Source: Caldilineaceae bacterium
Lineage (GTDB): Bacteria; Chloroflexota; Anaerolineae; Caldilineales; Caldilineaceae
NCBI GenBank assembly: GCA_019637695.1
Contig: JAHBVG010000006.1
Span: 29,227 to 93,226, forward strand
Direction of reading: 5' to 3'
Length of the DNA stretch: 64,000 bases
Shown here: in pieces, positions 6,832 to 50,557 of the stretch
Layout of the letters: every line of letters starts with the position of its first letter
Position numbering within the stretch: position 1 is the stretch's first letter
The notes under the pieces: generated by a model
Databases searched by the model: none
What the model was told of the DNA's origin: nothing
What the model saw: only the letters and a program-made list of their open reading frames with translations
Position numbers and translations under genes: made by a program

Positions 6832-7117
6832 GTCAGGTTTAACTACCTGCACCTTACGGGTTTTTAACGCAGGGTAGGGAAATAGTCATGTAGAACGTAG
6901 AGTTTTGGGAATGTAGATTCCTTTTCTGTGTATTAGAATGGCGCTGCGTCTATGAACGAGGATGACTATAGAAGTACATGAATCCAGGCAAGAAATTTAT
7001 GTTCTTTGCAATCAACTTTTGGGCTTTCGGTAGCAAAGCTATAGAATGCATAAAAATATCCGGATGTGGATCTGTGCCTTCTGAAATGTATGCCCCCCGA
7101 AAAGAGAATGAAAACCT

Positions 7118-8695: not shown

Positions 8696-8728
8696 TACCG
8701 TCGCTACAGTCTAAAGGGGGGAATTTTT

Positions 8729-10021: not shown

Positions 10022-10031
10022 AGGGAGAGCT

Positions 10032-10904
10032 ATGCATAGTCAATTTCTGCACTTGCCAGTCGAATCCACAAGTTTCAAGGAATCGATCCCCTATATGGGG
10101 AAACGGGCAAAACTTCTCTTGCATTATCGATTCTTGATCTACAATCTGGTAATGCGAGATCTCAAGGCGCGCTATCGAAATAGCGTCTTGGGGTTCCTGT
10201 GGAGTTTGCTGAACCCGCTTGGGATGATGGTGGTTTTCACAGTTGTAGCAACGGTACTTTTCCGAGATCAGACAATTGAGAATTATCCAATTTTCCTGTT
10301 AGCGGGGATCTTGCCGTGGAACTTTTTCACGGCAAGCGTCATGACGGGTACAAATAGTGTGGTCTCAAATGGTCACCTAATTAAAAAAATCTATTTTCCG
10401 ACTGAAGTTCTGCCCATATCGGCAATTTTGGCAAATCTCGTCAATTTTTTGTTGGCGCTAACCGTCCTCTTTGCTGCGATTATAGTGTTGCGTGTTCCTT
10501 TCAGCCCCTGGCTTTGGCTGCTTCCCGTTGTGATCCTCATTCACACGCTCTTTGCACTGGGTGTTGTTTTCTTCTTGAGTACATTGCAGGTTTATTATCA
10601 TGACACCCTTATTGTGATGGACGTTGTCCTGTTGGCCTGGTTTTTCCTGACGCCGGTTTTTTATTCAGCCAGTATGTTACCAGTCTCTTACACTGTTTGG
10701 GGCATCACGCTTGATGTACGGCGTCTTTTCTATATTCTTAACCCAATGGCTTCACTGATTAATATGTATCGGGATCTGCTCTACGGTGGAACTCGAACGG
10801 ATCTTGACTTTTTTCTGAGAACTGCGGTCACCGCGGTGATTGTATTCCTTGCGGGGTACTGGTTCTTCATTCGATACAGCGGCAATTTTAGCGAAGAGGT
10901 ATGA
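10032..10904 (+). CDS. wzm: ABC-2 type polysaccharide export permease (Wzm/TagG-like)
   Basis: 'LIYNLVMRDLKARYRNSVLGFLWSLLNPL' is the hallmark ABC-2 N-terminal motif. Six hydrophobic segments. The start could instead be the ATG at 10095. Confidence 0.85.
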   Translation: MHSQFLHLPVESTSFKESIPYMGKRAKLLLHYRFLIYNLVMRDLKARYRNSVLGFLWSLLNPLGMMVVFTVVATVLFRDQTIENYPIFLLAGILPWNFFTASVMTGTNSVVSNGHLIKKIYFPTEVLPISAILANLVNFLLALTVLFAAIIVLRVPFSPWLWLLPVVILIHTLFALGVVFFLSTLQVYYHDTLIVMDVVLLAWFFLTPVFYSASMLPVSYTVWGITLDVRRLFYILNPMASLINMYRDLLYGGTRTDLDFFLRTAVTAVIVFLAGYWFFIRYSGNFSEEV

Positions 10905-10971
10905 TGCCACGCTCTATTGCCGCATTGATTGCCAATCCTGGCAATGTACTGATTTCAGAGAGGATAGCTCC

Positions 10972-12105
10972 ATGCTCAAACAAATCGCAGTGATTATCTT
11001 CGCGGTATTTGCAGGGTTGATTTTTCACGGCCAGTCTATCGCAACTCAAGGCCCGATGGCGGAATTGCAAATTGAGACTGAGTCAAAAGTAACCGAATCA
11101 AGCTCACCTTTCTTTGTGCAATACGGAATTGCAGGCAAACCCAGCAGCCTGGCTGTGGAGAAACCACACCGGGTCTGGGTGACGTTGCCCGATATCGATG
11201 CAATTGGCGTCATCTCTGTTACGCAGATAGAGCAGACGACAACATCATATGAAGTCACCACCTACTTCCTGGAGGGGGGTAGCAAGCCCTACGATTTAGC
11301 CATCCAGGGAGATACAATCTGGTTTACCGCTTATGGCACAAACAAGATTGGTCGCCTAAATTCCACGACAAATACGCTGCAAACATATACTCTCACAGAT
11401 AGTGACAGCGGCCCCACGGGGATTCACGTCGCTACCAATGGCATTGTGTGGTTTGCCCAGCAAAAAGCCAATAAGTTAGGGAGGTTGGATCCGTCGTCGG
11501 GGGCGCAGCAATCCTATGCCTATCCAATCGCGGACGGTGGTCTCGATAGGGTCGCTACTTTCGGCGCAGATTCCGTTTGGTTCACGGCGCCCAAAGTAGA
11601 CAGGGTAGTCTATTTTGATGAATCTAAACCACCCCAGGAGCAATTCATTAACATTCCCACTTTCAGCAATCACCTTTTCCCCTATACCCGGCCTACGGGC
11701 ATTGCGTTGGAATCCGCCCAGATAGCTTGGGTCAGCGTGGCTGGTGGGAATAGTATCGGACGTTACGATCCTGGCACTTTGGCTTTGTGGAGATGGGATC
11801 AACTCCCTTCACAGGGCGAAGAAGAAACCGGGTCCATACACATCGCCCTGACTGGGGGTAATGGAGCCAGAAATTTGTTTTATGCAAATGAAATGACAAA
11901 GCGTATTGGCCGCGTCCATATCGGCACGAATACCGCCGTTGGCCGAATTCAGGAAATATCTGCCCCCGGATCCAATTGTACACCTCTGGGTATCAAGGCA
12001 GATAGTGATGGTAACGCCTGGTTCACATGTGGAGCAGCCAATACAGTCGTGTATTGGAAATCTCCATTTTTGCTGGACATTTACGCCCCGCTCATTTCAA
12101 AGTAA
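10972..12105 (+). CDS. secreted beta-propeller protein with Vgb (virginiamycin B lyase, COG4257)-like repeats
   Basis: The ATG at 10972 follows a gagagga RBS and begins a signal peptide (MLKQIAVIIFAVFAGLIF). Repeated blades of the form 'P.GI....G.VWF.....NK(I/L)GRL(N/D)' occur. Confidence 0.6.
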   Translation: MLKQIAVIIFAVFAGLIFHGQSIATQGPMAELQIETESKVTESSSPFFVQYGIAGKPSSLAVEKPHRVWVTLPDIDAIGVISVTQIEQTTTSYEVTTYFLEGGSKPYDLAIQGDTIWFTAYGTNKIGRLNSTTNTLQTYTLTDSDSGPTGIHVATNGIVWFAQQKANKLGRLDPSSGAQQSYAYPIADGGLDRVATFGADSVWFTAPKVDRVVYFDESKPPQEQFINIPTFSNHLFPYTRPTGIALESAQIAWVSVAGGNSIGRYDPGTLALWRWDQLPSQGEEETGSIHIALTGGNGARNLFYANEMTKRIGRVHIGTNTAVGRIQEISAPGSNCTPLGIKADSDGNAWFTCGAANTVVYWKSPFLLDIYAPLISK

Positions 12106-12261
12106 GGGAAAGTCGACTATCTATTTGAAGACGCATTTGCAGAGGAAGCCCCAATCAATCCCTCAACATCCTGTTTCATAGCTAGTCGAGTGGATATGTT
12201 GTCTGGATGTCGAAGATGAAACCTTCTGTACCTGATCCTATGGATCAAGGAGTGAACCCCT

Positions 12262-13760
12262 GTGGGAAAAAACTATACACATATCATAAACCGGACCAAG
12301 TATCTTGTCCTTTCCCTGATGCTGATAGTAGCAATCGTAGGGTCAGTTACGATCCACCCATCGATTGCCCTGATGCAGGAACCAACCTCGGCGGATCCCG
12401 TTGTTAGCCCAGCCGAACAGACAGCAACACACAAACTCTGGTTGCCTACGATTCATACAAATTCTTGCAGTGGCTTTCGCAACACTACAAAAAACCATTT
12501 CGGAATTCAGGTATATGGCTATATGGGTCCTCAAAGCCCCTATTATTGTGAACTCGTTGCCAGTGGCGCAACCTGGGTGCGGAATGAAGCTAGTTGGCGC
12601 AGCACAGAACCAACAAATGTTTCTCCACCTGAATACCGATGGCAAACGATTGACCGAGTGGTTGAGACGGCTACTCAAGGCGGATTCAACCTAATCCTTA
12701 CCATTAACTACAATCCATCTTGGGCAGCTACCTATTATCAAGGGCCAATTGACAAGGTGCCAGTGAAAAGATTTGCTGACTTTGTAGCTGCACTAGTGGA
12801 AAGATATGATGGAGACGGCATTAACGATGCCCCAGGTTCACCTGTGGTCGAGCATTTTGAGTTGTACAATGAACCCGATGCCTGGATTGCTCGCCCCAAT
12901 GATATTCGCTGGGGCAACAGCGGCAAGCAATAATATGCCGGAAATGCTAGCGGCGGTATATCCAAGCCGCCAAAGCTGCGAACCCCAATGCAAAGATACT
13001 GCTTGGCGGCATTGCCTACGATTGGTTCATTGAACATAATGGACCTTTTGTGCGCACCTTCCTTGATGCGGTATTGCAGAATGGAGGCGGCGCTCACTTC
13101 GACATCATGAGCTTCCACCAGTATCCCCCGTTTGCCGCAAACTGGGGAGCGCCAAATGGTCCCGGTTTGGTTGAGAAGACAAATGCCATCCGGCAAAAGC
13201 TTGCAGAGTATAATCTTCAGAAACCGATTATGATCACAGAAGCTGGGATGCACAGCAACTCCCCAGAGAGCCCGGAAAATCAGGCCCGCTATGTTACCAT
13301 GCTCTATACCCAGGCATTGGTGACCAATGTGGAGACACTGATCTGGTTTATGCTCTATGATCCGGGCGAGAGCTACCCATTTCGAAATGGTCTCGTAACA
13401 AACGTCAGCAGTGCCAATCCGCGGCCACAACGCAAACCAGCATTCGTTGCATACCAAACCGCCGCATCAAAGTTAGCCGGGGCTCGGTTTGAGCGTACTT
13501 TTAGCTCAGAAGAAACCAAAGATAAGGAGATGGTTGTTTACAAGTTCATTGATAAAAACAACAAACAACTGTTTGTAGCCTGGCTTGGTCCAATTTCGCG
13601 GAATGATAGCAAGTCACTCAACTTGCCCGGTACATCGGCCATTGTAAGCGACATCTATGGGACGACGCGGACTGTTAACGATGGTGATGATGGTAAAGTA
13701 GACGGAAACATTACACTGTCTGTTGGCGCGCAGCCGGTGTATGTGCATATTCATCCCTAG
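12262..13760 (+). pseudogene. glycoside-hydrolase-like gene (GH-A clan, 'YNEPD' type) disrupted by two closely spaced frameshifts
   Basis: ORF 12262..12933 ends at TAA 12931. The homologous reading continues 'EMLAAVY' in a second frame and '[23 protein letters not shown]...' in the third. The third frame opens after TAG 12948-12950 and is the frame of ORF 13050..13760. Catalytic-type motifs 'FELYNEPD' and 'IMITEAG' lie on opposite sides of the break. Confidence 0.6.
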
Positions 13761-13767
13761 AATGATA

Positions 13768-13839
13768 GGCTGTAGAAACCTGGTTTTTGATACTGCGTTT
13801 GAACTTCAGCTAGCAGTCAGACACCGGGTTTCTACAGCC
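13768..13839. repeat. 13-bp perfect inverted repeat (GGCTGTAGAAACC / GGTTTCTACAGCC) with a 46-nt loop
   Basis: Arms at 13768-13780 and 13827-13839. Sits between the GH pseudogene stop and the next start codon. Confidence 0.65.
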
Positions 13840-13864
13840 AAGAGCTAGTTCTGAGACTTGTAAA

Positions 13865-15484
13865 ATGCTGCCGCGAAGCCACTCAAAAGCGATCTTGCCG
13901 ACCCCAACCAAGATCTACTCATTCCCTTCTCGTTTGGTTGCAGCTCTCCTTATCGTTTTTATCTTTCTATCTACAGCGATAGGATTAATACTGCTTGTCG
14001 AACGGCAATCGCTCATCGGTGATTCTATTGGATATCTATATGCCGCCCAGAGTATTGCCTCAGGCATTGGCCCTGTTTACAACGATCCTAATAACTCATT
14101 AGCAGGCCCTTATTTTTCTCTATATGCTTTTCAGATCCGTCATCCGGATTCAGATCTGGCTTACCTCGGCTTCCCGCCTGGTTTGCCGCTGCTCTTATCC
14201 ATTCCACTGCTGTTCAACGTAGAATCCTCTCTTGTACTCTGGGTCGTTCCCTTCACCGTTCTACTTTGTATCATCTTCTGCGGTATACTTGCATGGGCGT
14301 TGACAAAAAGCATATGGTCTGTGTTCTGGGCTACTTTACTACTATCGGTCACGCCTGACTTATGGTACTTTGGCACGGCGATATGGTCTGAATTTCCCAG
14401 CACAGCGGTAATGAGCGCAGCGTTGGCATTCTATCTGCTTACTCAAATTTATCCTGTCCGTCGGCGAACAGAAACTGCACTGATGGGGTTGATAGGAATA
14501 TTGCTTGTCTTCAATGTATTTATTCGCTATACCAACCTGGTTGTTTTGCTTGTTTTTCTGGCAGTTGATACCCTCCGCCTTTTGAAAGATCGAAGTAAAT
14601 TGTCATCACACTGGCCGCTTTGGGGTCTTTCTGCTCTCGTAATCGTTGCAGTTCCACTGTTCAACTATTTTTATTATGGAGGCTGGAACATAACCAGCTA
14701 TAGCCCTGCACATGGTTGGTATCCCTGGCCGGCCTTTTCACTAGATTATGCTTTGGGACCCTCTTTTGTAGACGGCTATAGTTTGCTGGCTGGGATAACA
14801 ACTCTATGGCAGAATTTTGGCATCTTCCTGCCGCTTGCAGTTATGGGGTGGATTCTTTTAGGGCGCACAGGGGGATTTTTCGCAGGGATCTCACTGGCTA
14901 TCTTTGGAATACATGCAATCTATGCGTTTGCCCCCACCGGAATTAACGCGCGGTTCTTGATTCCTCTATTCCCATTGTTAGCCATTGGCGCAGCAATGGC
15001 AATTGTTACGATGCTTCGCCGGATTCCGCAACTCCCTAAAGTGGCGATCGCGTTTCTCCTTGTGGCGCTGGCTATATGGCAGATACCAGACACGTTAGAA
15101 TCTCCTGCAAATAGAAATCAGACAAATACACAACACATTGCGCTAATTCAGTCGATAACAGCTAGAACAGAATCCAATGCGGTATTCATGTCATACGCAT
15201 GGAACGATCTAATTGCCATTTACGGAGATCGCTCAGTATTCAACTACCGACGCGTTCCCGTTTCAGATCCTGTTCAAGGGCGATATCATATCGTTGAGGC
15301 AATACCGGTGATTATGGATGTCATAACAGCCTTATTGAAACAGCATATACCTGTATACTTTGTGGCAGGCCATAACAACTTTATCAACGATCTCCCCGAA
15401 ACCCTAACGTCGCACTTTTCGGTTGAATTAATTAACATCAACGACGTAACGCTTTATAAACTGGCTTTACCCGCAAATCCATGA
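13865..15484 (+). CDS. polytopic membrane protein, GT-C fold glycosyltransferase-like (ArnT/PMT_2-like)
   Basis: 539 aa with more than 10 hydrophobic segments. An early extracytoplasmic loop with acidic residues ('LIGDSIGYLYAAQS') resembles GT39/GT83-type enzymes. A soluble C-terminal domain of about 120 aa follows. Confidence 0.55.
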   Translation: MLPRSHSKAILPTPTKIYSFPSRLVAALLIVFIFLSTAIGLILLVERQSLIGDSIGYLYAAQSIASGIGPVYNDPNNSLAGPYFSLYAFQIRHPDSDLAYLGFPPGLPLLLSIPLLFNVESSLVLWVVPFTVLLCIIFCGILAWALTKSIWSVFWATLLLSVTPDLWYFGTAIWSEFPSTAVMSAALAFYLLTQIYPVRRRTETALMGLIGILLVFNVFIRYTNLVVLLVFLAVDTLRLLKDRSKLSSHWPLWGLSALVIVAVPLFNYFYYGGWNITSYSPAHGWYPWPAFSLDYALGPSFVDGYSLLAGITTLWQNFGIFLPLAVMGWILLGRTGGFFAGISLAIFGIHAIYAFAPTGINARFLIPLFPLLAIGAAMAIVTMLRRIPQLPKVAIAFLLVALAIWQIPDTLESPANRNQTNTQHIALIQSITARTESNAVFMSYAWNDLIAIYGDRSVFNYRRVPVSDPVQGRYHIVEAIPVIMDVITALLKQHIPVYFVAGHNNFINDLPETLTSHFSVELININDVTLYKLALPANP

Positions 15485-15631
15485 TGATATCTGAACAATG
15501 AATGCAAAGATAATCAATGGAGTATCTGAAGGAAGCCCGTAAAACAGGAAGTTGACATCTATGCATAAATGTATGCGTCAGTGTTTACCTATGTACCGGG
15601 CAATTATCTGAATAAAGGCAATATCTGTAGT

Positions 15632-16966
15632 ATGAGTACAACCACTCAACTTCACTCTGGCGACTGTTATAATCCATTGATCGATGTGATCGATGTATCA
15701 AAACGATTCCGGCTTCAGCGTGAGCGGCGGCGTTCGATCCAGGATACGTTCATTCACTTATGGAAACGACAGTGGGCGCACGGTGAATATTTCTGGCCGC
15801 TGCGGAATATATCACTACGTATTTGTCCTGGCGATAGTGTAGGCATTTTAGGACAAAATGGATCTGGAAAGAGTACCCTGCTCAAGGTAATTACAGGTGT
15901 ATTGCCCCCCACCACAGGACAGGTCCGCATCAATGGGCGAATTGCATCTCTGCTCGAACTTGGTGCAGGCTTTCATCCTGACCTGACCGGGCGCGAAAAC
16001 GTATTCCTGAATGGTTCAATCTATGGCATGAGTAAGGAGACCATTCAGAATAGATTGGATCAGATCATTGACTTCGCCGAAATCGGTGACTTTATCGACA
16101 CACCGGTAAAAAATTATTCCTCAGGCATGTATGTGCGGCTTGGATTTTCGGTCGCGGTCCATACATCACCGGAAATCTTGATCATTGATGAGGTACTCAC
16201 GGTTGGCGATCAGATCTTCCAACAGAAGTGTATGCAGCGTATCTTGGAAATGAAAGCGGCTGGCATTGCTATCCTTCTGGTTTCACATAACGCAGAGGAT
16301 ATTCGCCGACTCTGTGATAGAGCCATATGGCTGCACAACAGTGAAGTCCGTGCGGATGGCCCCGCCTTTGACACCGTCGATGAGTATCTTACTTATACTA
16401 ACGATCTCTATTACGCAAGACGTCGTGCTGAACAGACGCCTGCATCTGAACAGACGACAACTGCAGAGGATACACAACCCATACCCCAACTGGAAACTCG
16501 ACGTTGGGGAACATTTCAAGCTGAAATTGTGCGCGTCGAACTACGCAATGAAGACGGTGTGGAAGTAGACCAATTTCGCCCAGGTTCCATGTTGCGGATT
16601 TACATCTACTATAAGACCCACATGCGCATCGATCGTCCAACCTTTGGACTGGCTATCTACCGACAAGATGGATCTCACATCAATGGACCAAATTCAGTCG
16701 ATGAAGGATATCATCTGGATGCCATTGATGGGACAGGGGTTATGGAATATCGAATTGATGAATTGCCACTCAATCCTGGTCACTATGAACTGACGGTCGC
16801 TATCTATAACCAAAACTCTACAGTGGCATACGATCATCATCACCGCATGTATCCTTTTGAAGTAAGGTCGCTGCGCGGCAAAGGTGAGGAAGGTGTCGTG
16901 CATATTCCAGCCACGTGGCGCCACGTAACGGCTGAGGCAATCAACCTTCACACTAAGACCACATGA
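15632..16966 (+). CDS. wzt: polysaccharide ABC exporter ATP-binding protein (Wzt/TagH-like) with a C-terminal Wzt_C-like beta-sandwich extension
   Basis: Walker A '[10 protein letters not shown]', signature '[11 protein letters not shown]', Walker B 'ILIIDEVL'. A further 150 aa or so ('[18 protein letters not shown]...[11 protein letters not shown]') resembles the glycan-cap-binding domain of Wzt. The ATG at 15632 is preferred; the ORF opens at 15569. Confidence 0.85.
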
Positions 16967-39584: not shown

Positions 39585-40958
39585 ATGCGAATTCTATTCG
39601 TTATCCCTGCTTACACTCCCTTTGTGGGCGGCGCTCAGACATTTGTGCGCGCCATGGCCTGTCGCCTCATTGAGGATGGTCATACAGTGACAGTGCTTAC
39701 CACAACCGCTCAATGCGCGGACGACTACTGGCGTCCGTCATGCAGGGAACCATTGCCATTACACGAGCGGATCGACGGTGTAGATCTGGTGCGGTTACCC
39801 ATCCGCTATCCCTGGCCTGCGCCCTATCACTTTGGTCTGTTGCGGCGGGCCGGGCACTGGTTACAGCGTAGCGCCCTGCCCGATCCAATCCAGCAGCCAC
39901 TCTTAGGCTATTTCGCTCGTTCTATGCCGCCTTTGATCGATCTACAATCGACAACAGAGCGTCTTGTGGCTGAAGCCGATCTGGTACACGCCATCGACGC
40001 CACCTGGGATGGTCCTTTCACGGCGGCGAGTGGGGCGGCGCACAGCGCAGGGAAACCCTTTGTGGCGATGCCGCTTATCCACACGGGCAGCGCTCACATC
40101 CTGGCCCATGCCACCATGTCTCACCAGCGGACGGTCTACTACCAGGCGGAGGCTGTGATTGCGTTGACCGCTCGTGAAAAAGATCTGTTAGCAGAGCAGG
40201 GCGTTGCCAGGGATCAGATCCACGTCCTCTCGATGGGGGTCGAGCGAGAAGATGGCGGAGAGATCCCAACGCTCTCGGCCCGGTGGCGGCAACAAACCGG
40301 GGTGCGCGATCCGTTTGTCCTCTTTTTGGGGGCGGCGACCTATGACAAAGGAGCCTTCACGCTGGCGCGTACAGTGGTGGATCTACACCATCGGGGGATC
40401 GAGATTGGGGTGGTCTGCGCCGGTCCCCAACAGCAGCAATTGCAGCGCTTCATCGACACACAACCCGATCCCGACCGGCGACTGCTCACGGAACGGGTCC
40501 GCCTGCTGGGGATTGTGGATAAGCTGACCAAACGTTCGCTCCTTTCCGCATGTGTAGCCCTGGCGCTGCCCAGCCGCGTCGATTCCTTTGGGATCGTTTT
40601 ATTGGAAGCGTGGACGCATGGCAAGCCGGTTGTGGCCGCGGCTGAAGGTGGATTAAGTGAGATCGTCGCGCAGGATGAGACAGGTCTGCTTGTCCCTTTC
40701 GACGATGTGTCATCCCTGAGCGCTGCCATCACCTGCCTGCTCCAAAATCCGGTGCTGGCAAAGCGGTTGGGCGAAGAGGGACGTGACCGTGTGCGCTCTC
40801 GCTATACCTGGGATCATACTTATGCAGCCTTATCACATCTTTACACACAAATCGACCGTCCAGGATTCATCCACGCTGTCGAATCTTCAACCGCCAACGG
40901 CCTATCACCCGCCACGGCTCCCCTCAGCGGATGGAAAAGAGACGGTCGTCGTGGATAG
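39585..40958 (+). CDS. glycosyltransferase family 4
   Basis: 'MRILFVIPAYTPFVGGAQTF' ... 'LPSRVDSFGIVLLEAWTHGKPVVAAAEGGLSEIV'. Confidence 0.85.
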   Translation: MRILFVIPAYTPFVGGAQTFVRAMACRLIEDGHTVTVLTTTAQCADDYWRPSCREPLPLHERIDGVDLVRLPIRYPWPAPYHFGLLRRAGHWLQRSALPDPIQQPLLGYFARSMPPLIDLQSTTERLVAEADLVHAIDATWDGPFTAASGAAHSAGKPFVAMPLIHTGSAHILAHATMSHQRTVYYQAEAVIALTAREKDLLAEQGVARDQIHVLSMGVEREDGGEIPTLSARWRQQTGVRDPFVLFLGAATYDKGAFTLARTVVDLHHRGIEIGVVCAGPQQQQLQRFIDTQPDPDRRLLTERVRLLGIVDKLTKRSLLSACVALALPSRVDSFGIVLLEAWTHGKPVVAAAEGGLSEIVAQDETGLLVPFDDVSSLSAAITCLLQNPVLAKRLGEEGRDRVRSRYTWDHTYAALSHLYTQIDRPGFIHAVESSTANGLSPATAPLSGWKRDGRRG

Positions 40959-42309
40959 AAACGGCTATAACCTTGCCCCCAATCGGCGCGCCTTTGCGGA
41001 TAGATCCCACCCTCGGCGGATAGCGCCTGCGCCACAAACGCTCAGGCGGATCGCCTTTGTTGTGCATAAATTTCCGCCCGAAAGTCTAGGCGGTACGGAA
41101 CTCTACTGCTGGAGTCTGGCGCGCACATTGGCCCAGGCCGGACACGAGATCCACATTTTCTACCCCACGCCCCAACTGCTCCCCGGTGAGGAAAAGGTCG
41201 AGCGCGAAGGGGTTCATCTCTGGCGTGTGCCCTTGCCCGATAGCCGCCTTTACGAGAATCCGGTCAGCCAGTATTGGCATACCTTCCGCGATCTGAGCAT
41301 GGAGGCTGCGTTCCAACGCTTTTTGGCCGAAGTGGATCCGCAACTTGTCCATTTTCAGCATGTGCAAGGCGTTTCGGCGCGGTTGATCGAACTGGCTGCC
41401 CCGCGCACGCACATTGTGACCTTGCACGATTATTGGTTTTTTTGCGCCAACAGCCAGTTGATCCGCCCGGATCACCGCCCCTGTGATGGACCTTCGGCGG
41501 GCTGCCGCAATTGTGTAGACTGCGCGACTGAGCGCGCCGATCTCCAGTGGATGAAATCATTACGGCCTTTGGTCGCGCTCCCCTTTGCATATCGAAATCA
41601 TTATCTGCGCAAGTTGGCCGACGAAGTGGATCTCTTTATTGCCCCCAGTGATTTTCTGCGCGACCAATACATCCGCCACGGCTTCCCAGCGGATCGCATT
41701 GTCGTCATCGAAAATGGGTTGGATGAGAGCAAACTTACCCTTTCGGCGTTGCCGCCATTGCCCGAACCATCGGCGCGTCCTCATTTTGGATTTTTAGGAT
41801 CGCTGGCCTGGCAAAAAGGCGTCCACATTTTGATCGAAGCCTTCAATCAGGTAGACGAAGATGCTTCTCTGACCATCTATGGCAGTGAGCGGCTCTTCCC
41901 CGATTATGTGGCGCAACTCAAGGCGCTGGCGCGGCATCCGCATATTCGTTTTGCCGGTCTCTTGCCGCCGCAACAGGTGGGGGCAGCGCTCCGCCAGATG
42001 GACTGTCTGGTGGTCCCCTCGCTCTGGTACGAAAATTCTCCCCTCGTCATCCAGGAAGCCTACGGCGTCGGCGTGCCTGTGGTAGCCAGCCGTCTGGGCG
42101 CCATGCCCGAAAAGGTGCAGGATGGCCGCGCCGGTCGCCTCTTTGAGGCGGGGAACGTAGCCGATTTGACCGGCGTTCTGCGCGATCTCGTGGCCCATCC
42201 TCACGCCCTGGCCCAAATGGCTGAACAGATTGTTCCTGCGCCCGGTATGGCCGAACACGCGGATCACCTGCTTTCAATCTATGAAGGGCTGATCGAGGGC
42301 AGAAAGTAA
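40951..42309 (+). CDS. glycosyltransferase family 4 with a 4-Cys insertion (paralogue of 33112..34386)
   Basis: 'IAFVVHKFPPESLGGTELYC', 'YWFFCANSQL...CDGPSAGCRNCVDC', 'VVPSLWYENSPLVIQEAYGVGVPVVAS'. The start is uncertain. The GTG at 40951 overlaps the upstream stop; the ORF opens at 40783 inside the previous gene. Confidence 0.8.
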   Translation: MDRNGYNLAPNRRAFADRSHPRRIAPAPQTLRRIAFVVHKFPPESLGGTELYCWSLARTLAQAGHEIHIFYPTPQLLPGEEKVEREGVHLWRVPLPDSRLYENPVSQYWHTFRDLSMEAAFQRFLAEVDPQLVHFQHVQGVSARLIELAAPRTHIVTLHDYWFFCANSQLIRPDHRPCDGPSAGCRNCVDCATERADLQWMKSLRPLVALPFAYRNHYLRKLADEVDLFIAPSDFLRDQYIRHGFPADRIVVIENGLDESKLTLSALPPLPEPSARPHFGFLGSLAWQKGVHILIEAFNQVDEDASLTIYGSERLFPDYVAQLKALARHPHIRFAGLLPPQQVGAALRQMDCLVVPSLWYENSPLVIQEAYGVGVPVVASRLGAMPEKVQDGRAGRLFEAGNVADLTGVLRDLVAHPHALAQMAEQIVPAPGMAEHADHLLSIYEGLIEGRK

Positions 42310-43406: not shown

Positions 43407-44342
43407 ATGCGAATCAATGCTATGGTCAAGGATCAGCTTGTCGTCCGCAGGGTCTACGCATCTGAAAGCCGACAGATGGTGGAACTGTTGCACCCCTGGC
43501 TGGCGCGCGCGCCCTACAGCAGCGCAATGGACAACATTGAAGTACTTGATCAATGTTTTCAGCCAGCGCCAACGTCGATCTATGAAACGCGCTGGCTCCA
43601 ACACGATATCCTCGGCGCGTGGGATGGCGAAACCTTGCTGGGTTTCATCGACGTGGGGACGGGCTATGATCAGGCTTCCCTACATTTAGATGGCGAACGC
43701 CCCCTCGGATTATTGCGCTTCCTGGCCGTGCCAGAAGAGTATTTCGTCGCCAATCGGGTGGCAAAGACACTGCTGGCCGCCGCTGATACCTTCTGGGCAG
43801 AGGCGAATGTACGCCGAATCCGCGCTTTTACGCCCACCACGGGCTATCCTGCCTTTCAATCTGGGTGTGGGATCTTACCAGGCGTGTGGGAAGAACAGCT
43901 AAGCTGGCTTTCAGAAGCGGGTTACCGATTGGTGGAACGTTACTATTGTCTGCATTATCCGCTACAACGGCTGGTGGCCGAGACATTGCCCGAAGGAATC
44001 TATACATTTCGCCCGCAGGGATTGGATACAGAAAGCACCTATCAACTCTTTGTTGAGGATACACGGGTAGCCATGGCGCGCCTGTTCAAACGCCAGGTCA
44101 TCCACCCCGCTGGCGTGAACCCTATCGCCTATCTGAGCCACTTCGAGGTTTCACCCAAATGGCGGCGCAAGGGACTCGGAAGCTGGCTGATTCGTCGTCT
44201 CCTCAACGACGCCTACCTGACAGGCTGCTGCCAACTGGTGGTCCACGTCAACCACTCTGCCCACACTGCTATCTCTCTCTTCTCGCATGTTGGCTTCGAG
44301 GATATTAACTACCGCGGTTATATGCTTGAGAAACGTCTCTAA
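43407..44342 (+). CDS. GNAT-family N-acetyltransferase
   Basis: ATG at 43407; the ORF opens at 43212 inside the previous gene. The acetyl-CoA binding motif is 'FEVSPKWRRKGLGSWLIRRLL', followed by '...AISLFSHVGFE'. Confidence 0.65.
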   Translation: MRINAMVKDQLVVRRVYASESRQMVELLHPWLARAPYSSAMDNIEVLDQCFQPAPTSIYETRWLQHDILGAWDGETLLGFIDVGTGYDQASLHLDGERPLGLLRFLAVPEEYFVANRVAKTLLAAADTFWAEANVRRIRAFTPTTGYPAFQSGCGILPGVWEEQLSWLSEAGYRLVERYYCLHYPLQRLVAETLPEGIYTFRPQGLDTESTYQLFVEDTRVAMARLFKRQVIHPAGVNPIAYLSHFEVSPKWRRKGLGSWLIRRLLNDAYLTGCCQLVVHVNHSAHTAISLFSHVGFEDINYRGYMLEKRL

Positions 44343-45562
44343 TGCACATCCTTTTCGTCACCGGGGAATATCCACCCATGCGCGGCGGCGTGGGCGCATA
44401 TACAGCCGAATTAGGACGCGCCTTGCTGCCTCTGGGTGTCAAGGTCTCTGTTATTACCGCCCTGGGGATGAATCCCACCCTGGGGATGAATCCCCAGGCT
44501 ACGATAAATCCCGCCCTGGGGATGAATCCCCAGGCTAAAGCAGATTCATCAATTTATCCCCAAAGTTATCCCCAGATTCGCCATTGGGGATGGTCAACTG
44601 TGGGGGAAATTGCCCGGTTTGCCCGTCAACAGGGAGCGGATTGGCTCCATGTCCAATACCAGACGGCGGCGTTTCAGATGCACCCGGCCATTAATTTTGC
44701 GCCCTACCTCTGGCGACGATGGGGATTGCACACAGCATGGACCTATCACGATCTGCTTGTTCCGTATCTCTTCCCGAAGGCCGGGCGTTTTCTGCGCCGC
44801 TGGATCACAGAACGGCCGGCCTTTGACGCCACCTTTACCACGGTGACCAATGAAGCCGATTTCCGGCAACTGGCCGGTCGCGTGGATCGTCTCTTCAAAA
44901 TCCCCATTGGCAGCAACATTGAAGGGCGGACGCTTTCCTCCGATCAACGGCAGAAGCGGCGACGACAAAGAGGATATACGGATGACTCGTTGGTCATCGG
45001 CTATTTTGGATTCCTCAACCGCAGCAAAGGCGGCCTGACCCTGGTGAATACGCTGGATCTGCTTGTGCGCGCCGGGCGCAACGCTTATCTGCTTATGATC
45101 GGGGAACGGGTCGGGGCCAGCGATCCAACCAACTATGGTTATTTACAAGAGGTGGAAGGGCGCATCGCCGCTTTGGGGTTGGCAGATCGCGTCCAATGGA
45201 CCGGCCACCAATCGGACGCCGAGATTGGGGTGGATCTCAATGCGGCCGACATCCTTTTTATGCCTTATGTGGATGGGGTGAGCCTGCGCCGCGGCACGCT
45301 AATGGCCGGGTTGGTCAACGGCTGTGCAATTGTCACCACTGCGCCTCGAGATCCACTGCCAGAGTTGGTGGATGGCCGAGAGCTGCTCACTGTACCGCCC
45401 GAAGACGCCACGGCTGGCGCGGCTGCCATCCTGCGCATTGCCGACGACCCGGCGTTGGCGCAACGGTTACGCAGCAACGCTCGCCACGCCAGTGGACAAT
45501 TCGCCTGGTCTACAATTGCCGCCCAGCACCAGCATCTTTATACGCGCTTCGCCGATATCTAA
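44342..45562 (+). CDS. glycosyltransferase family 4 carrying an in-frame repeat insertion
   Basis: 'MHILFVTGEYPPMRGGVGAYT' ... 'GTLMAGLVNGCAIVTT'. About 40 aa of low-complexity 'ALGMNPTLGMNPQATINPALGMNPQAKADSSIYPQSYPQ' sit in the N-terminal domain. Confidence 0.8.
   Translation: MHILFVTGEYPPMRGGVGAYTAELGRALLPLGVKVSVITALGMNPTLGMNPQATINPALGMNPQAKADSSIYPQSYPQIRHWGWSTVGEIARFARQQGADWLHVQYQTAAFQMHPAINFAPYLWRRWGLHTAWTYHDLLVPYLFPKAGRFLRRWITERPAFDATFTTVTNEADFRQLAGRVDRLFKIPIGSNIEGRTLSSDQRQKRRRQRGYTDDSLVIGYFGFLNRSKGGLTLVNTLDLLVRAGRNAYLLMIGERVGASDPTNYGYLQEVEGRIAALGLADRVQWTGHQSDAEIGVDLNAADILFMPYVDGVSLRRGTLMAGLVNGCAIVTTAPRDPLPELVDGRELLTVPPEDATAGAAAILRIADDPALAQRLRSNARHASGQFAWSTIAAQHQHLYTRFADI
44460..44536 (+). 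repeat. three copies of CCCTGGGGATGAATCCC within a CDS (two extend to a 23-mer, CCCTGGGGATGAATCCCCAGGCT)
   Basis: Copies at 44460-44476, 44478-44500 and 44514-44536, read directly. Confidence 0.85.
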
Positions 45563-45574
45563 ATACACTTACCC

Positions 45575-45609
45575 ATGCTCTAGCCAGGTCACGGACCCGC
45601 CTAGAGCAT
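45575..45609. terminator. hairpin between convergent genes (ATGCTCTAG / CTAGAGCAT, 17-nt loop)
   Basis: 9-bp perfect arms at 45575-45583 and 45601-45609. The loop contains GGTCACGGACCC. There is no clear U-tract, so terminator function is inferred from position only. Confidence 0.45.
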
Positions 45610-45641
45610 AGGGCTTGGTAGTTACTCGCGTTAGCAAAAGT

Positions 45642-47096
45642 TCAAAACCTGTCATCGTTGTAATAGTTATCAAGCTTATCCTTTATTTGATTCTTGCTTC
45701 CTCGATATCCAGGCAAATCCAAAATCTCCTTTCTGCAACGCTGTTTATCATTTATTCTTGAGGATAGCCACGGCTCTAGCTTATGTTCAGGAATTTTGGA
45801 TGTGATTACAGTTGGCAATGAACATTCAAAGCGGTAATTAAGCAATTGGAAAAGTTTCTCTCTCGCCCATGGTGTAGCGCTTTCCATACCAAGATCGTCT
45901 AAAACCAAGAAAGGAATATTCTTAATTTCTTCAAAACGCATATCGTACGCGACAGGTGACGAAGGATTGAACGTAGACTTGAGATAATCTAAAAATTCAG
46001 CTACCCCAACAAAAAGCACATCTGAGGAGCTTTCCTCTGCCCAATGATTAGCAATGGCAGCGGCCAGGTGTGTTTTGCCAACTCCTTCAATTCCCAACAT
46101 GACAAACCACCCTAAAGGTTTTTCTGCATACTGCATAGCACTCCGCTTTACACGTCTGAGCGTACTCAATTCATCAGCTTTCAGATTCTGCAGTTTGTCT
46201 CGGAAATTATCGAATGTCTTGTCAGTCAGAATCCTCAGCATGCTGAGATCAATTTCTGATGGAGTAGAGCCATAACGATAATCAGGTAATCGCAATTCAA
46301 TCTTCTTTACCAATTTCATATCCATGAGACGACTGCGAAGCCTTTGATCAATATCTTCGAGCCGCTGATTACTTGTAACTACTGTGGGTAGTTGAGAATT
46401 GTATCGGGCGTTAAAGAGTTGAAAAAGCTTTTCCTGCGCCCACGCAGTCGAACTTTGCGTACCCAAATCATCTACAATTAACAATTCAGTAGTACGCAAA
46501 TGTTGGAAAACATTATCATAGGACACAGACATTTCGGGGTTGAACGCTGAACGAAGATGATCCAAAAGATCAGGAGCCACTATAAAAGTTGCAGGCTTCC
46601 CACTCGCAAAACGCTTATTTGCTATTGCTGCGGCTAAATGCGTTTTCCCAACACCATAGCTGCCAAGAATTAGAAGCCACCCCTCTGGATTGTTCGCAAA
46701 ATTCTGACATGTTGATAACGCCTTGGATAATTTTTCACGTTTTTCGAGAGACATATCTGGTATATCTACAACGAAACTTTCGAAGGTGTAACCTGCAATA
46801 TCTTGAACACCGTTCATATTTCTCAACTGGTATAGTTTTTTCAGCCGCATTTCCTCTTTTTTACAGTCACAGGGAAGCGCCTTCCCAAATTGAGGGTGAC
46901 CTAAAGGAACATCAAGCATGACATAACCCGTACCCTTACATTTAGGACATTCTCTGGGCTCCCCAAACTCTGACGATGAATAACTCGTTTGAGAATCCTT
47001 ATGAATATTTTGATGTTCTCTGATATTCCAATACTTACTCTGCGGAGAAGAATTCTCTACGCCGCTTCTCCTCAGAATACTGTCCAGATCCTCCAT
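45642..47096 (-). CDS. DnaC/DnaI-type helicase-loader-like protein with an N-terminal 4-Cys ribbon and two tandem AAA+ modules
   Basis: '[10 protein letters not shown]...LPCDC'. Module 1: 'YTFESF', '[16 protein letters not shown]', 'LLIVDDLG', 'TVVTSN', 'RLRSRL'. Module 2, exactly 190 aa later: 'KTFDNF', '[16 protein letters not shown]', 'FLVLDDLG', 'TVITSK', 'WLSSRI'. Confidence 0.8.
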
Positions 47097-47763
47097 AGTC
47101 TTCGTCCTTTCCTTCCGTCTCCCACCGTTTCAGCACAGCCTGAATATAGCGCAGGGCGCGTTTGTTGTTGCTGACAGCAATCTCGAACGCTTCTTGAATC
47201 CAATCGGGCGGGTAATTCTTTTCCATGTCGCGCAGTTGTTCGGCGATCAACTCGGTCATCAGGCCAATGTTCTGCTCGTAGAGGATAAAAACATTGGGCC
47301 GATCCACAGTGAGCCGCGCCTCGTCAGGGATGATCTTTTGGAGTTCGGCCAGCCGTCCCTGGCGGATCATCGCCACCGCCTGCCGTCCTTTGGCGGTGTT
47401 GAGGAAGTACCAATCCTCGCTGATCGCCGCCGCGCCCTCGCCGGTTTCCACTTCCATGCGCAGGAGGGTATGGCGGGCGACGGCCCGTTCCAATGCATCC
47501 TCCAGGGTGGAAAGCGGCGTGCGCAGGTCGCTTTCCAAATTCAGGCTGCGCAGCAGCGTTTCATCCTTGCGCAGATCATCCCCGCGCAGATAGCGCAGAT
47601 CCCCGCTCTGTTCATTCAACAGCCAGAAGATATAGATCGTCAACTTTAACTCGGCCAGATCGTCGATCTGCGGCAGAAGATCGGTGAAAAAGAGATCGGG
47701 GACGATCACCTGTTTCATCTTTTTGTCGGGAAAGCCGATGAAGCCTGGAAGTGATTTGGGCAT
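47035..47763 (-). CDS. DnaD-domain replication/primosome protein (DnaD / B. subtilis DnaB-like)
   Basis: The C-terminal '[62 protein letters not shown]' matches the DnaD/DnaB_2 domain pattern. The 3' end overlaps the next gene by 62 nt. Confidence 0.75.
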
Positions 47764-47905: not shown

Positions 47906-50557
47906 TTAATACTCCAACTCCTCGCGCTGAATTTCCAGATCGCGGAACTGGGTGAGTTCTTTGCGGAAGAAGAGGCTGACCGAGCCGGTGGAACCGTGAC
48001 GATGTTTGGCGATCAGAATATCGGCGATATTCTGGCGATCCGTGTCCTCGACGTAATAGTCCTCGCGATAGACGAAGAGGACGACGTCCGCGTCTTGCTC
48101 AATGGAATTATGGACAATCATGTTGGCGGCCACAAAATTGTGTAACCCAGGCACAGTTAGATCGTAAACATCGATGACGCCGTCCTCTTCTATTGAGACA
48201 ATTTCATCCCAATAGACATCACTCTGGGCTAGGCGGTTGATCTCGGTTGACGAAACAGCCGCGCCAAGACGCATAGCCCGTTCACGGCTGATATTCTGCT
48301 TGTAAAGTTGCGTTCCACAATATTCATTCCCTAGCGCTGATTGCATTTGACGCGTTGTCATTCCAATCTTTTGCATGGATGGCACAACATACATCCGCCA
48401 AATTTGGTTAGGAATGATGTCGCGATTGGTATTGGCAGGTCGAGAAGATATATGGGTTAGGATTAACTCCTGTTGTGTACACTTGGCGATCCCGACTGTT
48501 CCGATAATCGAGGAAAATAGTTCTATGTCTCCACGGCCACTGACAATTACATGAAACTGGTCGCGTCCCTTTTCACCTTGGAATTGCACTTTCAGCCGAG
48601 CATTGATCCCCAGCCGCAACAAGAGAGATTGCACATCTACCGCCAGTTGTGGGCTGCTAGTCGCGTAATAAACTGCTGGTCTCGGTGATTGACCGCCTAC
48701 CATCCGTACGCAGCCATCTGTTGCCCAAAGATGGCGCAGGAAATGCGCGATCTTTGGCGCTGGCTGGCAAAAGACCGAATGCGGGACATACTTTTCGTAC
48801 GAACGAAGTCCAAAGGCGCCTAGATTATTAAGCCAGGCTGCAATGGGATTTCGTACGCCATGCGTTAAATGGTCTGTAGAGGATAGATAGACCTGATGCC
48901 ATTGCCGTTCCTGTCGGATGCGCGGCGTCACTTTTTTACCAAAAATATCTACTGCAAGTTGAGCGACGAGACGGGCAAGATCAATTTCTCGGCTCGTATA
49001 CTGGATCACATGGCGGGGCAGTGTACAGCCATCCCCGATAAGATGCCCCAGCAAAGCAAGCTCTGCGTCACTCATCGTGGCCGTGGTTGGACCTGTCAAA
49101 CATCTTGGTAACGCTAGACGTTCTCCAATAGACAATTCGTCCAGTCTCTTCCAGCCCTGAAATGTGAGGAATTTGTGGTTAGCCGTCGCCCGGATCGAGC
49201 GTCCGAGGCGCGTTGTCAATCGATAGACCGACTTTTCACCTGTATAGAAAGCATGGCTAACTGGCCGCGTCTCCATTTTCCACGTTTCTGGGTTCAGCGC
49301 AGAGATCGAGAATCCCTGCTGCCCCACCAAATTACGGATAGGAACGTAGCGCCCTTCTAACGGCAAATAGATAGGTGTATCCCCGGCCAGACAACCACTC
49401 TCTCTCAAATCCGACAACATTGGACGCTTATCCGCACGGCTTTCAACGGCGCGGCTGAGTTGGCTGAGCGCAATGACGGGCACGTTGAGTTCGCGCGCCA
49501 GTTCTTTGAGCGAACGGCTGATAAAGCTGATCTCTTGCTGGCGGTTCTCGCCGCCTTTGGAATTTTTGCCGCCGGTCATCAACTGCATATAATCGATGAC
49601 GATCAAATCGATGCCGTGTTCAGCGTAGAGACGCCGCGCTTTGGTGCGGATGTCCATCACCGAGGCGCCGGGCGTATCGTCGATAAAAATATGGGTCGCC
49701 GAAAGCGTATTGGCCGCTTCCATGAGGATGGGCCACTCGTCCTCATAGATCTGGCCTAGCCGCAGCCGATGGCTGTCGATGGCCGATTCCACCGAAAGCA
49801 GACGCTGGACCATCTGCTCATTGCTCATCTCTAAACTGAAGACGGCGACGCGGGCGCTGTAGCGCTTGGCCGCGTTCTGGGCAATGCTCAGCCCCAGGCT
49901 CGACTTCCCCATACCGGGTCGCCCGGCCAGGATGATCAGATCGCTCTTTTGGAAGCCGCCCAGCATCTTGTCGAGCATGGTGAAACCGCTGGGCACACCC
50001 ATCAACGTGTTCTGGTTGCGGGCGAGGAAGTCGATCTGATCCACCACAGTCTGCATGATGCTGCTAATGGGCATCAATTCGCGGTGGATGCGGCTCTCGC
50101 TGACGCCGAAGATGATCTGCTCGGCCCGATCCACCACTTCATCGACATCGTTACTTTCGTCGTAGGCCAGTTCGGCGATCTTGCCCGCTGCCCCGATCAA
50201 CCGGCGTAGGATGGCGGTGCGTTCGACAATACGGGCGTAATAATCGACGTAAATGGCGGTGGGCGTGCTGTTGATCAACTCAGTGATGTAGGCGGGCCCG
50301 CCCACTTCTTCCAACTGCTCTTGCCGCTCTAATTCATCGACCAGCGTCACAAAGTCGGCGGGTTCGCGGCGTTCATGCAGGGCGATGAGTGCGCTGTAGA
50401 TCCACTGGTGGCGCTCGCGATAGAAGTCCTCGGCGCGCAAAAAGCTGGCTACCTTGACAATCGCATCAGGATCGATAAGCAACGAGCCGAGGACGGCGCG
50501 TTCCGCTTCCATATTCGCCGGGATCGATTTCACCAAGGCATCTGTAGATTCTGTCAT
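47906..50557 (-). CDS. dnaB: replicative DNA helicase DnaB, interrupted by an intein
   Basis: '[12 protein letters not shown]', Walker A 'GRPGMGKSS', 'IVIDYMQLM', '[10 protein letters not shown]', 'SDLRESG' / 'SIEQDADVV'. The exteins sum to 454 aa. Confidence 0.95.
48107..49393 (-). mobile_element. 429-aa DnaB intein with a LAGLIDADG homing-endonuclease domain
   Basis: Starts at Cys389 ('[10 protein letters not shown]', TGT at 49393-49391) and ends 'VHN' (AAT at 48109-48107), followed by Ser. Endonuclease motifs are '[10 protein letters not shown]' and '[11 protein letters not shown]'. It is AT-richer than the exteins. Confidence 0.9.

Follow-up and report, generated by a model that had tools for sequence, protein, structure and literature searches.

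On the minus strand of the 64,000-nt stretch of DNA analyzed here (Caldilineaceae bacterium, assembly GCA_019637695.1, contig JAHBVG010000006.1, positions 29,227 to 93,226 of the forward strand; called the window in the following), one gene encodes a protein of 484 amino acids (aa) which carries two AAA+ modules of the DnaC/DnaI type, one behind the other, in a single chain. The explanation that accounts best for the data as a whole, and which we consider probable, is a helicase loader that was duplicated in place in the Anaerolineae, whose modules (M1 and M2) lie side by side in the loader spiral and whose copy in this genome has been shifted towards AT. According to this explanation, the gene is the resident chromosomal loader of the replicative helicase and forms one transcription unit with dnaB and the gene of a DnaD-like adaptor.

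Architecture and assignment of the tandem loader

From the N- to the C-terminus, the protein consists of a short conserved motif, a disordered spacer, a four-cysteine ribbon (aa 50-78) and the AAA+ modules M1 and M2:

45642..47096, minus strand: tandem loader coding sequence, 484 aa and stop codon (open reading frame; Pfam IstB_IS21 and Bac_DnaA, twice each)
47067..47096, minus strand: extreme N-terminal motif, aa 1-10 (encoded in the overlap with dnaD; conserved in relatives)
46956..47066, minus strand: disordered variable spacer, aa 11-47 (predicted local distance difference test, pLDDT, <50 for aa 8-43)
46863..46949, minus strand: 4-Cys ribbon, C50-x2-C53 ... C76-x-C78 (conserved Cys; pLDDT ~94)
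46269..46796, minus strand: AAA+ module 1 (M1), aa 101-276 (K151/T152, D209/D210, N243, R256, R274)
46227..46268, minus strand: inter-module linker, aa 277-290, with a conserved DLSxL motif (alignment and AlphaFold2, AF2)
45699..46226, minus strand: AAA+ module 2 (M2), aa 291-466 (K341/T342, D400/D401, K434, R447, R465)

The open reading frame is intact, and its product is identical to an NCBI entry named 'MAG: ATP-binding protein [Caldilineaceae bacterium]'. The two halves of the protein are 40% identical over 172 aa (E = 5e-44), a resemblance which on this statistic far exceeds chance. An identical Walker A block of 13 aa occurs at aa 148 and aa 338; the boxes TFESF and TFDNF start at aa 104 and aa 294, DDLG at aa 209 and 400, and EKLFQL at aa 222 and 413. 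Furthermore, the sensor motifs TVVTSN and TVITSK and the downstream Arg motifs RLRSRL and WLSSRI were found in the first and the second module, respectively. An earlier note on this DNA had deduced two tandem DnaC/DnaI-type modules from these motifs, all of which were recovered. The offset of exactly 190 aa given there applies at Walker A; from Walker B onward it is 191 aa because of a one-residue indel. Moreover, the protein does not begin with the Cys ribbon, as had been stated, since 49 residues precede it.

An alignment of 119 tandem loaders, on which all residue counts for M1 and M2 are based, revealed an asymmetry between the modules. M1 shows the features of the initiator/loader clade of AAA+ proteins, i.e. 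the Walker A GKT (K151/T152), Walker B (D209/D210), the sensor-I Asn (N243), the Box VII Arg (R256) and the sensor-II Arg (R274); K151, T152, D209, D210, N243 and R256 are invariant (119/119), and R274 is present in 118/119. As far as these residues can tell, M1 is a complete ATPase. M2 of the window protein keeps Walker A, Walker B, the Box VII Arg (R447) and the sensor-II Arg (R465), and K434 occupies the sensor-I position. Across the family, K341, D400 and R447 are invariant in M2 (119/119) and R465 is found in 109/119, whereas the sensor-I Asn, present in all 119 M1 modules, occurs in only 2/119 M2 modules; the other residues at this position are Ser (96), Thr (11), Ala (6), Cys (1) and Lys (1, this window). 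In AAA+ proteins, sensor I helps to place the attacking water. M2 still possesses the residues for binding ATP-Mg and for donating its Box VII Arg, as an arginine finger, to a neighboring site, but as it lacks the sensor-I Asn, it probably hydrolyzes ATP poorly. The description of both modules as complete in the earlier note is thus not valid for M2.

The N-terminal motif recurs in tandem and single-module relatives in versions like MEDLGEILRR, MDELNALLRR, MERLNNILGR and VESIDKVLKR, and AF2 predicts a short helix of low confidence at aa 5-9 of the loader. A contact of this motif with DnaB or DnaD is speculation. A purine-rich stretch resembling a ribosome-binding site is located just before the loader ATG. 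The length of the spacer varies greatly in the family and exceeds 400 aa in some single-module relatives. In the ribbon, whose first knuckle has the form CxxCxGxG, the cysteines are conserved in nearly all sequences that are ungapped at the respective column of the alignment (C50 107/108, C53 109/109, C76 118/118, C78 117/118). Comparison of the ribbon with DnaI-N, chains of the PDB and Pfam yielded no significant match; the profile DnaJ_CXXCXGXG stayed below its cutoff (E = 0.024). In the linker, only aa 277-281 have a pLDDT <50, and the residues L284, S285, L287 and H290 are nearly invariant in the family alignment.

With regard to established families, the protein matches Pfam PF01695 (IstB_IS21) in two separate stretches (110.3 bits, cutoff 24.1). 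It remained below the cutoffs of the DnaC equivalog NF005931 (125.7 vs 357 bits), the DnaI equivalog NF006505 (142.2 vs 228 bits; modules alone 74.4 and 71.4) and the IstB equivalog (135.2 vs 200 bits). The cutoff of PRK08116 (189 bits) is passed by the whole protein (218.5 bits) because the scores of the two modules, 122.5 and 100 bits if taken alone, add up. The canonical architecture of DnaC, DnaI and IstB, with one module per chain, is not that of the window protein, which has two.

The closest solved structure to each module, in sequence as well as in fold, is E. coli DnaC, and DnaI of B. subtilis and G. kaustophilus was also found. DnaC (6QEL, 6QEM, 3EC2; E. coli/Aquifex) is the best match per module (E = 1.4e-16; TM-score normalized to the target, TMt, 0.64) and shares the layout of Walker A/B, sensor I, Box VII and sensor II with M1, but it has one module and no zinc ribbon. 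To our knowledge, E. coli also has no DnaD partner. DnaI (4M4W, 2W58, 2QGZ; phmmer E = 3e-14 to 6e-13) possesses the same type of AAA+ module, and, like the tandem loader, it has a Cys-containing region before the ATPase and a DnaD-domain protein in its system; it differs by having one AAA+ module per chain. The zinc ligands of DnaI are Cys/His, and the ribbon of the tandem loader with its four cysteines (CxxCxGxG...CxC) has no detectable sequence similarity to DnaI-N. IS21 IstB (5BQ5, 8Q4D; TMt 0.53) shares PF01695 with the loader, which in contrast to IstB has no IstA partner, scores below the IstB equivalog cutoff and is located in a chromosomal dnaB operon.

The operon comprises the following further features:

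47035..47763, minus strand: DnaD-domain gene, 242 aa (Pfam DnaB_2, TIGR01446 DnaD_dom)
47906..50557, minus strand: replicative helicase gene dnaB, 883 aa including an intein (Pfam DnaB, DnaB_C, Intein_splicing, LAGLIDADG_3)
48107..49372, minus strand: intein with LAGLIDADG endonuclease in DnaB, aa about 396-817, about 422 aa (Pfam)

Both genes are located directly upstream of the loader gene on the same strand, as the earlier note had reported, and the 3' end of dnaD overlaps the start of the loader gene by 62 nt (47035-47096). Genes for glycosyltransferases, a GNAT protein, a bifunctional nuclease and a QTMAN-like enzyme flank the locus on both sides. The absence of IstA nearby was also borne out, as neither IstA nor a transposase is encoded within about 6 kb on either side, and no second IstB- or loader-like gene was found in the 64-kb window. 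For comparison, the best 120 protein clusters at 90% identity and the best 80 loci, with one genome per species, were surveyed. In these 80 species loci the operon (rplI-)dnaB-dnaD-loader is conserved: dnaD is situated immediately 5' of the loader gene in 77/80, and dnaB lies upstream of dnaD in most. There is one locus per contig among them, three complete Caldilineaceae chromosomes included. According to the supplement of Brezellec et al. 2016 (PMC5109545), Anaerolinea thermophila and Chloroflexus each possess one dna[CI] gene and no dciA; the main text of that study describes one domestication event in Chloroflexi and mentions no duplication. Owing to this context and the homology, the assignment as a helicase loader, already favored in the earlier note, is well supported, and the protein is probably the sole chromosomal helicase loader of its host.

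A helper protein of a mobile element (IS21 IstB-like or of a prophage) unrelated to helicase loading, or two ordinary genes joined by an assembly error or frameshift, could be suspected from the Pfam name IstB_IS21 and from the pairs of DnaD-like and DnaC-like genes carried by phages. The probability of this is negligible. The helper was rejected on the basis of the absent IstA or transposase, the score below the IstB equivalog cutoff and the constant position behind dnaB and dnaD, which 77 of the 80 loci share. The artefact was rejected because the fused frame occurs in independent assemblies from several sources. Moreover, both modules are under strong purifying selection (see below).

At the 3' end of the operon, scans for terminators and promoters found nothing, and an Rfam scan of the window gave no match. 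The 79-nt gap that separates the loader gene from the convergent glycosyltransferase gene contains a perfect inverted repeat of 9 bp, ATGCTCTAG(n17)CTAGAGCAT, at about 45575-45610; it is not followed by a T-run and was not reported by the terminator scan.

Distribution and history of the tandem form

In the protein survey, 118 of the 120 clusters have a length of 416-535 aa, cover 84-97% of the query and share 43-56% identity with it; of the other two, one covers 75% of the query and one is the four-module protein P0002. Many clusters bear the name 'DNA replication protein DnaC', given by JGI. All 80 species loci match both modules, and 77/80 were parsed as one uninterrupted frame in which Walker A occurs exactly twice. 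Tandem loaders occur in Caldilineaceae (Caldilineales), Ardenticatenales, Promineifilaceae, Anaerolineales, Aggregatilineales and Thermoflexus. Judged from these sequences, the tandem two-module loader is the standard form throughout the Anaerolineae and has been deposited many times; the architecture is thus not tied to this gene or its AT-rich segment. Two metagenome-assembled genomes labelled 'Cellvibrionaceae' (L063) and 'Deltaproteobacteria' (L065) also contain an Anaerolineae-type dnaB-dnaD-tandem-loader operon and are probably mis-binned.

The gene family as such is already known as the 'domesticated dna[CI]' of Chloroflexi and is labelled DnaC or ATP-binding protein. Three features are apparently undescribed: the tandem architecture and its conservation, the one-sided degeneration that affects M2, and the variants with three or four modules. 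No paper describing any of these was found, and the architecture is not matched among solved structures, in which loader chains comprise 174-317 aa and one module. The statement of the earlier note that a covalent two-module loader had not been described therefore holds for the searchable literature and the solved structures.

The nearest neighbor of a module in another taxon is always a module of the same class (M1 to M1 in 73/73, M2 to M2 in 73/73), and for 145/146 modules the average distance to the own class is smaller than that to the other class. According to this pattern, the duplication was single and ancient; it occurred in place early in the Anaerolineae, before these orders diverged. 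Strict monophyly was not recovered in a neighbor-joining (NJ) tree with viral outgroups (M2 in 5/100 replicates, M1 in 0/100); because this criterion is too harsh for such short modules, it was replaced by the nearest-neighbor and margin tests, which gave a clear outcome (146/146 and 145/146).

Two variants with more modules were detected among the top 150 representatives. P0002 (L081, 6001-8484) has the order M1-M1-M1-M2 in 827 aa, with M1 copies that are 51-63% identical to each other, and is encoded behind an intein-containing dnaB and dnaD on a 64-kb contig. P0122 has the order M1-M1-M2 in 792 aa and a repeated C-terminal extension. The module counts of both are putative, as assembly artefacts of the repeats are possible.

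Single-module relatives from Chloroflexota and viruses share the N-terminal motif, the ribbon, an M1-type module and the dnaB-dnaD-loader slot with the tandem form, from which they differ by having one AAA+ module. For example, a loader of 278 aa with one module is encoded in the order rplI-dnaB-dnaD-loader (L165). The modules of P0277, P0226, P0211 and the viral L082 are 45-61% identical to M1 modules, and the single-module proteins likely represent the ancestral form. Some of them (P0226, L164 3340-4989; P0248; P0211) carry a disordered spacer of 200-430 aa, rich in P and Q, between N-terminal motif and ribbon; these loaders, too, stay within the dnaB-dnaD-loader operon.

In phages, single-module genes only and no tandem loaders were seen among the best 15 of 862 matching INPHARED records, and the same applies to the best 80 of 466 IMG/VR matches from viral contigs. 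The best viral match among those examined is L082 (694-1485), a 59-kb predicted viral contig (IMG/VR) encoding a 263-aa single-module loader with ribbon, the M1-type module of which is up to 61% identical to cellular M1. This contig may connect the family with an origin in phages, or it may be a misclassified chromosome fragment.

Proposed arrangement of the modules on the helicase

Most plausibly, the loader works as a hard-wired dimer. In the proposed geometry, M1 and M2 would be consecutive protomers of the usual loader spiral, and three chains would supply six AAA+ modules per DnaB hexamer. Catalytic and non-catalytic ATP sites would then alternate, and only three N-termini would be available for docking to the helicase. 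An ATP site between subunits may plausibly be locked into one chain by the fusion. Such an arrangement would be a hard-wired version of what was observed in the BstDnaB-BsuDnaI crystal structure (PMC3791466), in which DnaI is bound to DnaB as 'three loader protein dimers', non-equivalent ones whose two monomers make different contacts. In its strictest form, i.e. a covalent pseudo-dimer of which three chains provide strictly alternating catalytic M1 and ATP-binding M2 sites and three N-termini docking to DnaB, this proposal can only be put forward tentatively.

A side-by-side position of the modules is indirectly supported by these DnaI dimers, by the conservation of the arginine fingers of both modules and by the AF2 model, which is confident and not p97-like (see below). 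In addition, the variants M1-M1-M2 and M1-M1-M1-M2 fit a filament more easily than stacked rings. Three points weigh against the proposal. First, the loss of the sensor-I Asn is no proof of lost hydrolysis, since Ser or Thr at this position might substitute for it. Second, P0122 lacks the sensor-I Asn in every one of its three modules; either the sensor-I rule is not universal, or P0122 is defective. Third, a chain with four modules cannot tile a hexamer evenly.

An analogy is offered by rings of AAA+ and related ATPases that concatenate their modules or in which active sites alternate with degenerate ones (p97/ClpB, Pex1/Pex6, clamp loaders, dynein); the shared feature is a chain with two AAA+ modules, one of which is catalytically degenerate and keeps its arginine finger. 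These proteins belong to a different AAA+ clade than the loader, however, and none is a helicase loader of the DnaC/DnaI type. The loader could nevertheless form a two-tier type II assembly like ClpB or p97, with six chains per DnaB hexamer and a ring or spiral of M2 modules stacked on one of M1 modules. The best matches of the whole chain in a Foldseek search with the AF2 monomer model (pLDDT 86, predicted TM-score 0.68) were indeed the tandem AAA+ proteins p97/Cdc48/VCP. Walker motifs and an arginine finger of its own in each module would suit homotypic M1-M1 and M2-M2 interfaces equally well, and with six chains each of the six sites of DnaB would still have an N-terminal docking element. 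But the matches to p97 are globally poor (TM-score normalized to the query, TMq, 0.23-0.40; root-mean-square deviation 12-22 Å). Even in the best of them (TMq <=0.40, 12-18 Å) the model does not superpose on the stacked tandems, which suggests that the predicted inter-module geometry is not D1-D2-like. Variants with three or four modules would require as many stacked tiers. AAA+ proteins of the loader/initiator clade form open spirals and not closed rings in a stack. A lateral pairing of loaders on DnaB is also already known from DnaI (PMC3791466). A two-tier assembly is therefore quite improbable.

Likewise, M2 might be mainly a regulatory or adaptor pseudo-ATPase, either as a cap that gates the oligomerization of M1 or as a dock for DnaD, DnaA or single-stranded DNA. 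This would be in agreement with the family-wide loss of sensor I and the loss of sensor II in about 8% of the members, with the position of M2, which is always last, while M1 alone is amplified in the multi-module variants, and with the constraint on M2, which is stronger than anywhere else in the protein (ratio of non-synonymous to synonymous substitution rates, dN/dS, 0.046). However, none of the 119 M2 modules deviates at the Walker A Lys, the Walker B Asp or the Box VII Arg, which is the pattern expected of a nucleotide-binding module that completes the site of its neighbor and is thus a member of the oligomer. We regard a mainly regulatory or adaptor role of M2 as unlikely.

If the side-by-side arrangement with alternating sites is correct, the loader would show a three-fold division of labor resembling that of F1-ATPase, which is not known for any helicase loader. 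The M1-amplified chains with three or four modules would then be further steps towards a single-chain loader.

Composition and origin of the AT-rich copy

The loader gene has a GC content of 0.415, compared to 0.55-0.61 in its flanks, and the drop starts right after the stop codon of dnaD; the AT-richness and the abrupt edge pointed out in the earlier note are thus confirmed. At third codon positions (GC3), the loader gene reaches 0.379, dnaD 0.695, the exteins of dnaB 0.72-0.74 and the downstream genes 0.60-0.63, and the loader value is the lowest of the 39 open reading frames of the window (z = -2.7). The protein is also rich in amino acids with AT-rich codons, as the fraction of F, Y, M, I, N and K residues (FYMINK) is 0.278 versus a family mean of 0.188. 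None of 80 other loci matches the GC deficit of this loader; their values range from -0.07 to +0.115. The view that the AT-richness is a lone anomaly was rejected, since the GC content varies along the window (0.45-0.62 per kb), with low values also in a polysaccharide cluster at 5-17 kb; the loader gene is still the extreme.

This cluster for polysaccharide synthesis and export (5257-16966, plus strand; GC3 0.45-0.52), the second low-GC region of the window, encodes a Polysacc_synt flippase-like protein, a GT4 glycosyltransferase, an ABC-2 permease, a Wzt-type ABC ATPase and a Vgb_lyase-like protein. The intein of DnaB has a GC3 of 0.495 vs 0.72-0.74 in the exteins. Among the other glycosyltransferases, the one at 44342-45562 (plus strand) has short peptide repeats of the GMNP type close to its N-terminus. 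Two glycosyltransferase reading frames, 39585-40958 and 40783-42309 (plus strand), have 176 nt in common with the listed boundaries, and for this reason the GTG start of the latter is probably located further downstream.

The loader protein is also unusually divergent. In comparison to the locus L002, DnaB is 83%, DnaD 76% and the loader 50% identical, while other pairs with DnaB identities near 83% have loaders with 68-78% identity. Relative to the prediction from DnaB and DnaD, the loader falls short by about 20 identity points, which is the lowest residual of 58 taxa, and its terminal branch in the NJ tree is 2.5 times the median. Nevertheless, it grouped with Caldilineaceae loaders in 151/200 NJ bootstrap replicates, in 72 of these with the clade favored by DnaB.

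A second metagenomic contig (L163) has the same locus, with DnaD 94.7% and the loader 87.6% identical to those of the window, and with a GC3 of 0.357 for the loader gene and 0.691 for dnaD. The nucleotide homology between both contigs stops at the stop codon of the loader gene. Comparison of window and L163 gave dN/dS values of 0.087 for the whole loader, 0.093 for M1 (M2 as given above) and 0.080 for dnaD; both modules are under strong purifying selection. Synonymous (dS 0.69 vs 0.40) and non-synonymous (dN 0.060 vs 0.032) divergence are both about 1.7-1.9 times higher in the loader gene than in dnaD. Since the locus is common to both contigs and dN/dS is low, the AT-rich copy is functional and must have existed before the two lineages separated, and it is still evolving fast. 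The DnaB of L163 carries the same intein, and the dnaB genes of L081 and L164 also contain intein domains.

Two explanations for this copy have to be considered. One is a xenologous replacement in the common ancestor with L163 by the gene of a low-GC, unsampled relative within the Caldilineales or of its phage, to which we give nearly an even chance. This would explain the step in GC3 from about 0.70 in dnaD and dnaB to 0.38 right after the dnaD stop codon, a deficit seen in no other species locus, as well as the excess divergence and the end of the homology to L163 exactly at the loader stop codon. Precedents exist: in Vibrionaceae, viral genes are documented to have taken the place of helicase loaders (PMC11087808), and cellular dna[CI] genes were inferred to be domesticated from phages (Brezellec et al. 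2016, PMC5109545). On the other hand, no donor-like sequence was found in 5.8 billion clusters, in which the best match outside the own lineage is 56% identical, and the tandem form is absent among the best viral matches mentioned above (15 of 862 and 80 of 466). The placement with Caldilineaceae likewise speaks against a replacement. Furthermore, GC3 is equally low in both lineages at a dS of about 0.7, so that no amelioration is visible, and a rate about twice that of dnaD since the split points to an effect intrinsic to the gene.

The other explanation is vertical descent with an accelerated, AT-biased evolution specific to this gene, a serious if tentative possibility. It is in line with the position among the Caldilineaceae loaders, with the ongoing rate excess, which concerns synonymous and non-synonymous sites at a dN/dS of about 0.08 for loader and dnaD, and with the stationary composition in the lineages of window and L163. 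It does not readily explain why the other 80 lineages keep the loader gene at a flank-like GC content. Nor are we aware of any mechanism by which a single gene of an operon would lose 0.3 in GC3 while the effect ends at the stop codon of the neighboring gene. The acquisition or replacement suggested in the earlier note therefore stands as one of two live readings, qualified by the grouping with Caldilineaceae, the presence in L163 and the continuing fast evolution.

The current picture of bacterial DnaC/DnaI-type loaders is that of proteins with one module which assemble with six-fold stoichiometry on DnaB, and it has long been debated how many of the six ATP sites bind or hydrolyze ATP and whether loaders act as dimers. 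One bacterial class with a genetically fixed dimer, in which one site per pair is degenerate, would be a natural experiment on these questions. In a tandem chain both sites can be mutated independently, and the docking stoichiometry, three or six per helicase, can be measured directly. Since tandem loaders are currently annotated just as 'ATP-binding protein' or 'DnaC', the architecture also matters for annotation. The AT-shifted copy offers a clean case for studying either how an essential replication gene is replaced in place or how the composition of a single gene drifts. The family as a whole records a stepwise path from single to tandem to three or four modules within one conserved chromosomal operon.

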